In this document: positions 55,846-57,568 of the stretch, piece by piece | How the letters are laid out: each line of letters opens with the position of its first letter | Numbering within the stretch: position 1 is the first letter of the stretch | Notes under the pieces: generated by a model | The model's input: only the letters and a program-made list of their open reading frames with translations | Database searches by the model: none | Told to the model about the DNA's origin: nothing | Virus record (IMG/VR): IMGVR_UViG_2939142107_000001 | Location: 1 to 64,000 of that record | Length of the DNA: 64,000 bases | Source: a virus | Lineage: Duplodnaviria; Heunggongvirae; Uroviricota; Caudoviricetes | Strand: one strand, 5' to 3' | Made by a program: the position numbers and the translations under genes

Positions 55846-55902
55846 GAGAGAAAAATCCCACTCCACCAGCCAAAAACTGGATTGTTTTTCATAGTTGTTT
55901 GA

Positions 55903-55922
55903 CAATTGCTCTAATAAATTAT
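55903..55922. promoter_or_regulatory. C1 operator (Op99-like) caattgctctaataaattat in inverted orientation to the previous one. It overlaps the putative promoter TTGACA (55897-55902)-N17-TAGTTT, which is directed toward coi-c1.
   Basis: Consensus ATTGCTCTAATAAATT. Confidence 0.6.
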
Positions 55923-56080
55923 AGTTTTGCCGCCGTTTCGTAATACGACTTTGGATTCACTATTTAATGTGTCTTCAGCGTTGTAGAGCGGCTCAGAAGG
56001 AAATGAGCAAACAGGGAAACCTTATACAACGGCATTACAGCTATGCATTGCTCATCTTACACACAGCGCAATGTTGTTAG

Positions 56081-57275
56081 GGAAGGTGCGAATAAGCGGG
56101 GAAATTCTTCTCGGCTGACTCAGTCATTTCATTTCTTCATGTTTGAGCCGATTTTTTCTCCCGTAAATGCCTTGAATCAGCCTATTTAGACCGTTTCTTC
56201 GCCATTTAAGGCGTTATCCCCAGTTTTTAGTGAGATCTCTCCCACTGACGTATCATTTGGTCCGCCCGAAACAGGTTGGCCAGCGTGAATAACATCGCCA
56301 GTTGGTTATCGTTTTTCAGCAACCCCTTGTATCTGGCTTTCACGAAGCCGAACTGTCGCTTGATGATGCGAAATGGGTGCTCCACCTTGGCCCGGATGCT
56401 GGCTTTCATGTATTCGATGTTGATGGCCGTTTTGTTCTTGCGTGGATGCTGTTTCAAGGTTCTTACCTTGCCGGGGCGCTCGGCGATCAGCCAGTCCACA
56501 TCCACCTCGGCCAGCTCCTCGCGCTGTGGCGCCCCTTGGTAGCCGGCATCGGCTGAGACAAATTGCTCCTCTCCATGCAGCAGATTACCCAGCTGATTGA
56601 GGTCATGCTCGTTGGCCGCGGTGGTGACTAGGCTGTGGGTCAGGCCACTCTTGGCATCGACACCAATGTGGGCCTTCATGCCAAAGTGCCATTGATTGCC
56701 TTTCTTGGTCTGATGCATCTCCGGATCGCGTTGCTGCTCTTTGTTCTTGGTCGAGCTGGGTGCCTCAATGATGGTGGCATCGACCAAGGTGCCTTGAGTC
56801 ATCATGACGCCTGCTTCGGCCAGCCAGCGATTGATGGTCTTGAACAATTGGCGGGCCAGTTGATGCTGCTCCAGCAGGTGGCGGAAATTCATGATGGTGG
56901 TGCGGTCAGGCAAGGCGCTATCCAGGGATAACCGGGCAAACAGACGCATGGAGGCGATTTCGTACAGAGCATCTTCCATCGCGCCATCGCTCAGGTTGTA
57001 CCAATGCTGCATGCAGTGAATGCGTAGCATGGTTTCCAGCGGATAAGGTCGCCGGCCATTACCAGCCTTGGGGTAAAACGGCTCGATGACTTCCACCATG
57101 TTTTGCCATGGCAGAATCTGCTCCATGCGGGACAAGAAAATCTCTTTTCTGGTCTGACGGCGCTTACTGCTGAATTCACTGTCGGCGAAGGTAAGTTGAT
57201 GACTCATGATGAACCCTGTTCCATGGCTCCAGATGACAAACATGATCTCATATCAGGGACTTGTTCGCACCTTCC
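56081..57275. mobile_element. Complete IS5 (1195 bp) with 16-bp terminal inverted repeats GGAAGGTGCGAATAAG / GGAAGGTGCGAACAAG and a 4-bp TTAG target-site duplication (56077-56080 and 57276-57279).
   Basis: Ends and direct repeats are visible in the sequence. The internal ORF matches the IS5 transposase. Confidence 0.92.
56227..57243 (-). CDS. insH: IS5 transposase InsH (DDE).
   Basis: [35 protein letters not shown]... matches the IS5 transposase. Confidence 0.92.
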
Positions 57276-57358
57276 TTAGATTACCCCAGCATGGATCATG
57301 GGTGAAACAGTAGGTCAGAGCTTCAGGCTCTGTGTTGTCAATACAGTGAGGCATAATT

Positions 57359-57568
57359 ATGGCTTTCATTCCACCAACCATCGACGACGTTAGACATTGC
57401 TCTAACGCTTTATCTGTAGACCCCGCCGAAACCGACGCTGCCCGCGCCATTGCTGAACACTACTCAAAGATATCCAATCAGGAGTACCGCATCACCCAAG
57501 ACGACCTGGATGATCTCACTGACACAATCGAATATCTCATGGCCACTAACCAGCCAGACTCACAATAA
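57359..57568 (+). CDS. coi: Coi, C1 inactivator (69 aa).
   Basis: 69 aa, immediately upstream of c1. It contains the internal C1 operator gacattgctctaacgcttta (57394-57413). Confidence 0.7.
   Translation: MAFIPPTIDDVRHCSNALSVDPAETDAARAIAEHYSKISNQEYRITQDDLDDLTDTIEYLMATNQPDSQ

Follow-up and report, generated by a model that had tools for sequence, protein, structure and literature searches.

A complete copy of the insertion sequence (IS) IS5 lies within the immunity locus immC of a P1-like IncY phage-plasmid, which was analyzed here as a 64,000-nucleotide stretch of DNA (positions 1 to 64,000 of the IMG/VR record IMGVR_UViG_2939142107_000001; hereafter the window) whose orientation is opposite to that of the P1 reference. 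The element occupies positions 56081-57275, is flanked by TTAG on both sides, and breaks no gene. What is broken is the connection of the promoter P1coi and the small gene imcA to the genes imcB, coi and c1, which are now 1.2 kb apart. An effect of this separation on the level of Coi, and hence on the lysis-lysogeny balance, is plausible from the arrangement of the locus. The reading that we favor, and hold to be moderately probable, is that P1coi has been severed from coi, so that Coi would be reduced or lost on derepression, with a mild bias toward lysogeny. The original prediction had placed a complete IS5 with its duplicated TTAG at this point, and the positions that it gave for the locus all hold.

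Promoters and operators were assigned by mapping the curated P1 GenBank annotation onto the window, together with published work (PMC8546580), and the layout of the locus is as follows.

54304-55335, minus strand: cre.
55343-55564, minus strand: cra.
55745-55778: loxP.
55822-55838, minus strand: Oc1e (formerly Op99e), the C1 operator beside P4cre; found by the operator scan with 2 mismatches to the consensus; P1 94724-94740.
55899-55928, plus strand: the promoter P1coi (formerly P99d), mapped from P1 94634-94663 and identical to P1.
55899-55904: the -35 element of P1coi, TTGACA, read by the lenient promoter scan as TTGACA-15-TATAGT.
55905-55921, plus strand: Oc1d (formerly Op99d), the C1 operator overlapping P1coi; 1 mismatch to the consensus; P1 94641-94657.
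55967-56080, plus strand: imcA, 37 amino acids, intact; taken from the list of open reading frames, with length and position as in phiW39 and P1 imcA.
56077-56080: left copy of the TTAG target duplication.
56081-57275, minus strand: IS5, 1195 bp.
56081-56257, minus strand: the "IB" bend region, the 3'-terminal 177 bp of IS5, which faces imcA and P1coi and not coi.
56227-57207, minus strand: the ins5A transposase gene, 326 amino acids, intact; NCBIfam NF033581, 365.7 bits (cut-off 140).
57276-57279: right copy of the TTAG target duplication.
57298-57393, plus strand: imcB, 31 amino acids, intact, overlapping the start of coi.
57359-57568, plus strand: coi, encoding the C1 inactivator, 69 amino acids; nucleotides identical to P1.
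57396-57412, plus strand: Oc1c (formerly Op99c), the C1 operator within coi; P1 94349-94365; its core ATTGCTCTAA is among the repeats found.
57568-57595, plus strand: Oc1ab, a bivalent operator, mapped together with Pc1 from P1 94150-94193; Oc1a was also found by the operator scan.
57582-57611, plus strand: Pc1 (formerly P99a), the c1 promoter, with -35 TCTATT at 57582-57587 and -10 TATAAT at 57606-57611.
57613-57657, plus strand: a long hairpin in the c1 leader, found as an inverted repeat; minimum free energy -33.5 kcal/mol.
57679-58530, plus strand: c1, encoding the repressor, 283 amino acids, intact.
58556-60040, minus strand: pacB.

The order of these features is that of P1 immC, namely lox, Oc1e, P1coi with Oc1d, imcA, imcB, coi, Oc1ab with Pc1, and c1, and the C1 protein scored 608.8 bits against the NCBIfam equivalog model NF041318 phage_rep_C1 (cut-off 500). 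A consensus scan for the 17-bp asymmetric C1 operators gave 10 matches in the window, with 0.29 expected by chance, and independently recovered Oc1e, Oc1d and Oc1a at their annotated P1 positions. The paired inverted operators that the original prediction had described upstream of the element are real and correspond to Oc1e on the minus strand and Oc1d on the plus strand. The spacings proposed there are also borne out: IS5 lies 159 bp from Oc1d, and the ATG of coi is 84 bp from IS5. When IS5 and one TTAG were removed, the window aligned collinearly with P1 immC, and 720 of the 722 positions in the excised control region matched P1 while 721 matched phiW39. The segment that contains Oc1ab and Pc1 is base-for-base identical to P1, and the TATAAT of Pc1 was picked up by the lenient promoter scan.

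The inserted element is equally typical. IS5 is described as 1195 bp long with 16-bp imperfect terminal repeats (PMC11677980), and the element in the window agrees: its ends read GGAAGGTGCGAATAAG and GGAAGGTGCGAACAAG, with the right inverted repeat (IRR) at 56081-56096 and the left inverted repeat (IRL) at 57260-57275. It shares 99.5% identity with the IS5 copy annotated in P1 mod749::IS5, and its TTAG duplication fits the 4-bp YTAR type. The ins5A gene points away from coi and is read in the direction of imcA, loxP and cre. The elements of its promoter Pins5A (-35 GTGCGA, -10 GATCAT, and an A as transcription start site) were checked against PMC11894529 and are present, as is the IHF site of the IB region, AAATGCCTTGAAT, at 56166-56178; both the IB region and the IHF motif TCAA-N4-TT are used as defined in PMC2753651. 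By these features the element belongs fully to IS5, just as the locus belongs fully to P1 immC. On the strand opposite to ins5A, an open reading frame of 58 codons (57103-57279) leaves the element through its IRL end; its stop codon is the TAG supplied by the target duplication, so that the frame is closed solely by the YTAR target.

The first T of the TTAG target ends the TGT codon with which imcA closes, and the remaining TAG is its stop codon; imcA remains intact because the duplication regenerates that stop. The consequence of the insertion is therefore one of connectivity, and it differs in part from what had been proposed. The original prediction held that IS5 separates the autoregulated immunity promoter region, and any small open reading frames like imcA and imcB, from coi and c1. 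IS5 does lie between the C1-controlled P1coi/Oc1d and coi. However, the autoregulated Pc1/Oc1ab lies downstream of IS5, identical to P1, so that c1 keeps its own promoter with Oc1ab and Oc1c, and a c1 promoter upstream of IS5 exists only in the sense of the promoter that c1 shares with coi. An intact c1 promoter downstream of the element, used at normal levels, had been named as evidence against that proposal, and the structural half of this was found in the form of Pc1. As for the small genes, imcA stays with the promoter while imcB stays with coi, and neither is disrupted. The distance between Oc1d and Oc1c has grown from 292 bp to 1491 bp.

Coi binds C1 and thereby inactivates it, and how probable lysogeny is depends on the balance between C1, Coi and Lxc. 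P1coi would be off in an established lysogen, where coi would be repressed anyway and c1 would be expressed from Pc1, so that maintenance should be undisturbed, which is consistent with the intact backbone. Upon infection or inactivation of C1, transcripts from P1coi would run into IS5, in the sense direction for ins5CB and antisense to ins5A. Few or none of these transcripts would be expected to reach coi, which would lower the amount of Coi as well as the share of c1 mRNA that P1coi contributes. The predicted net result is weaker antagonism of C1, and thus a modest bias toward lysogeny or a weaker lytic commitment in a phage that is still viable. Viability is expected because lytic growth does not require coi or imcB (PMC10695390), and because phi456, which carries an analogous insertion, is functional: it is released at up to ~1e7 plaque-forming units per mL and is infectious, with plaques described as "tiny and blurry" (PMC10967188). 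The insertion is an ordinary, probably mild regulatory mutation in which the control of c1 is kept.

IS5 and the sequence between it and coi were scanned for promoters that might substitute for P1coi. A lenient custom scan gave no plus-strand -35/-10 pair in 57113-57497, which covers the last 160 bp of IS5, the junction, and the 84 bp before coi. The same scan recovered both P1coi and Pc1, and inside IS5 it gave weak candidates only. It replaced a strict scan of 55700-57750 that returned 0 sites and was uninformative, since it missed P1coi and Pc1 too. Pins5A and Pins5CB themselves are reported to be largely inactive, the activity of Pins5CB being negligible (PMC11677980).

Several points weigh against a loss of Coi. 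Through IS5, the coi-sense strand showed no strong intrinsic terminator and only weak hairpins, near 56113-56160, and some read-through from P1coi into coi is therefore possible. Transcription can enter IS5 in this direction, as an external promoter beyond IRR can drive ins5CB (PMC11677980). With P1coi lost, part of the early transcription of c1 goes as well, and this might compensate for the lost Coi. Finally, P1coi is the only promoter published for coi (PMC8546580), and this single-promoter status rests on a figure legend and GenBank annotation.

The alternative that survives best is that the insertion is functionally neutral, with P1coi reading through the 1.2-kb element and still delivering C1-regulated coi (and c1) mRNA, perhaps at a lower level. 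The lack of a convincing plus-strand intrinsic terminator and the ability of an external promoter to drive ins5CB would both fit neutrality, as would the finding that transcripts traverse the whole of IS5 at fucAO, there in the other direction (PMC11894529). In addition, phi456 and RCS47 remain functional phages with a similar insertion, and coi has been kept intact across a large lineage that bears the related element ISKpn26. The case for neutrality is weakened by terminator-like sequences that have been reported inside IS5 (cited by PMC11677980). The plaques of phi456 hint at a changed lytic propensity. Moreover, the read-through RNA would run antisense to ins5A and be largely untranslated over 1.2 kb, which predicts Rho-dependent polarity, as long untranslated RNA is its typical substrate. 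Taken together, we regard neutrality as possible but doubtful, and severance of P1coi from coi, with reduced Coi, as the better account of the allele.

The original prediction also raised the activation of coi and c1 by IS5, and this is unlikely. Transcription that starts in or at the edge of IS5 would produce Coi independently of C1, and this Coi would inactivate part of the C1 and increase spontaneous induction. There is precedent for such an effect, since bgl, glpFK, fucAO and flhDC are activated by IS5 (PMC2753651, PMC11894529); high spontaneous induction has been described for phi456, where an IS5-family element lies immediately upstream of coi, and the plus-strand open reading frame at 57103-57279 leaves through the IRL end. 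As in glpFK, fucAO, flhDC and bgl, the element in the window is located upstream of a regulated operon and has the same IB/IHF region and the same silent Pins5A. The geometry is different, however. In every documented activation, those of glpFK, fucAO and flhDC included, the 177-bp IB/IHF end is proximal to the activated gene and the end with the ins5A promoter is distal (PMC2753651), whereas the element in the window is reversed relative to coi and c1, with the IRL/ins5A end proximal and the IB end 1.1 kb away, and it lies downstream, not upstream, of the operon promoter. The fusion promoter at fucAO depends on a Crp site whose centre is at -61.5 (PMC11894529), ~20.5 bp outside IRL. At that position in the window, only 2 of the 10 core positions match, and the best nearby candidate has 5 of 10 at -65.5. 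Two candidate promoters were rejected on these grounds, namely a fucAO-type fusion promoter, for want of a Crp-like site at -61.5, and a hybrid or outward IS promoter toward coi, as the lenient scan gave no outward pair. Constitutive Coi would also be predicted to destabilise the prophage, yet the backbone bears no sign of decay, and phi456 is reported to be induced at a rate of only ~1e-5. Compared with the activation cases, polarity and not activation would be expected here.

Slightly less credible still is an effect on the far side of the element, in which the IB/IHF end or read-through from ins5A alters P1coi, P4cre, cra or cre, or in which the added 1.2 kb alters C1 looping between Oc1d/Oc1e and Oc1c/Oc1ab and with it the level of c1 autoregulation. 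Toward cra and cre, IS5 does have the activation-type orientation of glpFK and flhDC, with the ins5A promoter distal and IB proximal, and the minus strand carries ins5A as well as cra and cre. For looping, the increased spacing of Oc1d and Oc1c is the relevant change, and Heinzel and colleagues are said to have described, in 1994, C1-mediated looping in c1 autoregulation. On the other hand, IRR is ~295 bp from the mapped start of P4cre, which is beyond the -99 to -170 cited for flhDC and glpFK (PMC2753651), and Pins5A is all but silent unless an activator site is present, while no Crp-like site was found at -61.5. An assembly artefact, in which a read from the IS5 that is multicopy in E. coli, and whose repeats can confuse assemblers, was misplaced, is highly improbable given the perfect 4-bp duplication at a YTAR target, the exact restoration of the sequence on excision, and the identity of both junctions in two independently assembled complete plasmids.

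The age of the insertion was assessed by comparison with IS5-free relatives. When the 1,199 inserted bases were removed, the window matched 62,800 of 62,801 positions of pCARB35_01 (NZ_CP031654.1), an 89,643-bp IncY plasmid found in a dog isolate of E. coli. This plasmid is free of IS5 and has a single TTAG at the exact point of insertion. At least 12 further plasmids from human and dog E. coli were 100.0% identical over 22.8 kb and lacked exactly those 1,199 bp. This near-total match to IS5-free siblings indicates that the insertion is very recent, and it occurred in an otherwise conserved, widespread lineage. Judged from these alignments, the event is a recent and ordinary transposition of IS5 into the TTAG at the end of imcA in the pCARB35_01 lineage. 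The sole base that separates the window from pCARB35_01, apart from the insertion, is at window position 28482, within a tail-fibre-like, glycine-rich gene that the plasmid annotation places at 27629-29662.

Few sequences share the exact junction, which was found in 2 of 72,556 PLSDB plasmids and in 2 of 5,426 complete E. coli genomes, which are the same two Sichuan duck isolates, and 33-mers across the junction gave 0 matches in the GTDB representative genomes, IMG/VR and JGI metagenomes. The two duck E. coli plasmids, pBL12EC-2 (NZ_CP079777.1, with IS5 at 9101-10295 of the examined locus) and pqnrS (NZ_CP141792.1), share the insertion point, orientation and duplication of the window. Their backbone, in contrast, shares only 96.9% identity with that of the window, the c1 leader belongs to the RCS47 type, ant/icd follows c1 where the window has pacB, and their IS5 copies differ from that of the window at 3 synonymous sites. 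The flanks of the window are identical to those of the IS5-free siblings right up to the insertion, which indicates that the shared site reflects either an independent hit or a small recombined patch. The latter would be at most 1.43 kb, and probably one of these two explanations holds. Common descent with the duck plasmids is possible but would require crossovers at most 142 bp to the left and at most 96 bp to the right of IS5, and the IS5 copies also differ at the 3 sites mentioned. No meaningful P value can be attached to the coincidence of site, because this would need the total of IS5 insertions in P1-like plasmids.

A second and more widespread insertion was found at nearly the same place. 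ISKpn26 (an IS5-family element annotated as "IS5D") is present in RCS47, in phi456 and in at least 114 PLSDB plasmids, in the same orientation as the element in the window, with its transposase antisense to coi. The ISKpn26-type element spans 1846-3041 of phi456 and 657-2629 of RCS47, in the coordinates of the examined loci. As in the window, the same small open reading frame, imcA, is involved, P1coi/Oc1d is severed from imcB, coi and c1, and coi and c1 are intact. Unlike IS5, however, ISKpn26 (a name taken from the Prokaryotic Genome Annotation Pipeline) is 1196 bp long and is 91% identical to it; its target is CTAT inside imcA, 35 bp upstream of the site in the window, so that imcA is split ("ImcA, part 2" in the RCS47 GenBank record) whereas imcA of the window is whole. 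Among PLSDB plasmids, 701 contain the 280-bp immC segment, which is uninterrupted in 563 and carries the ISKpn26 junction in at least 114. The sampled carriers of ISKpn26-type elements have often been remodelled further, with IS1 nested in the element, IS1 abutting the 3' fragment of imcA, or a dms operon attached, and coi and c1 were intact in these loci wherever they were still adjacent. About one fifth to one sixth of sequenced P1-like plasmids have ISKpn26, IS1 or IS5 within 35 bp of the 3' end of imcA.

The recurrence at this place is compatible with a structural hotspot or with selection for severing P1coi from coi. Only two YTAR sites lie between the -10 of P1coi and the ATG of coi, TTAA at 55964-55967 and TTAG at 56077-56080, among 910 in the whole 89.6-kb plasmid, so there are few places where IS5 could sever P1coi without breaking coi. 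A stronger proposal is that severing coi from its C1-controlled promoter by an IS is a recurrent, selected route to a quieter, more plasmid-like life for P1-like elements. The occupancy of the 3' end of imcA, the use of the same TTAG in two backbones, and the larger size of ISKpn26 carriers would all fit this proposal, which we offer tentatively and would not expect to hold. The median size of ISKpn26 carriers was 122 kb and that of intact plasmids 95.6 kb (Mann-Whitney p = 4e-7), a comparison that is only a hint of more cargo, as the samples were neither random nor phylogenetically independent and a small "spread" sample gave p = 0.14.

Insertions of IS5 into temperate phages have been seen before. 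P1 mod749::IS5 (AF234172) and cI::IS5 of lambda KH100 resemble the window in having a 1195-bp IS5 with a 4-bp duplication in a temperate phage genome. Those insertions break coding genes (mod and cI), while in the window the connectivity of an operon alone is changed. The allele is accordingly new in its exact site and backbone and not in kind, since IS5 in temperate phages is classical and GenBank already contains, in RCS47, an insertion of the IS5 family in imcA. Externally driven ins5CB raises IS5 transposition about two-fold in K-12 (PMC11677980), and it is conceivable, though unsupported, that derepressed P1coi would now drive ins5CB.

Two further observations concern the same locus in relatives of the window. 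In P7, immC (1768-1995 of the examined locus) has lost the stop codon of imcA through a change of TGTTAG to TGTAGG, and imcA and imcB are fused as imcAB. This P7 sequence offers no TTAG target of the kind used in the window, and it makes the coding status of these small open reading frames doubtful. The c1 leader hairpin, which follows closely after the -10 of Pc1, retains its stem in the divergent RCS47-type allele (-27.0 kcal/mol) despite ~20 substitutions. The pattern resembles compensatory covariation and would then point to an RNA structure that is conserved and controls c1 expression.

The contribution of P1coi-driven Coi was left open when the biochemistry of P1 immunity stopped (PMC8546580). 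One IS5 and one base are all that separate the window from pCARB35_01 over the 62.8 kb compared, which makes that plasmid a near-perfect natural isogenic partner, and the pair is suited to a clean test of what P1coi-driven Coi does in the lysis-lysogeny decision. Our literature search found no paper that discusses IS insertions upstream of coi, and the allele adds to a recurrent pattern, undiscussed in the searchable literature, in which an IS uncouples coi from P1coi in roughly one fifth to one sixth of sequenced P1-like plasmids. Antibiotic-resistance genes are spread by P1-like phage-plasmids in either form, plasmid or phage, and the ease with which they switch to the lytic cycle decides which of these routes is dominant.

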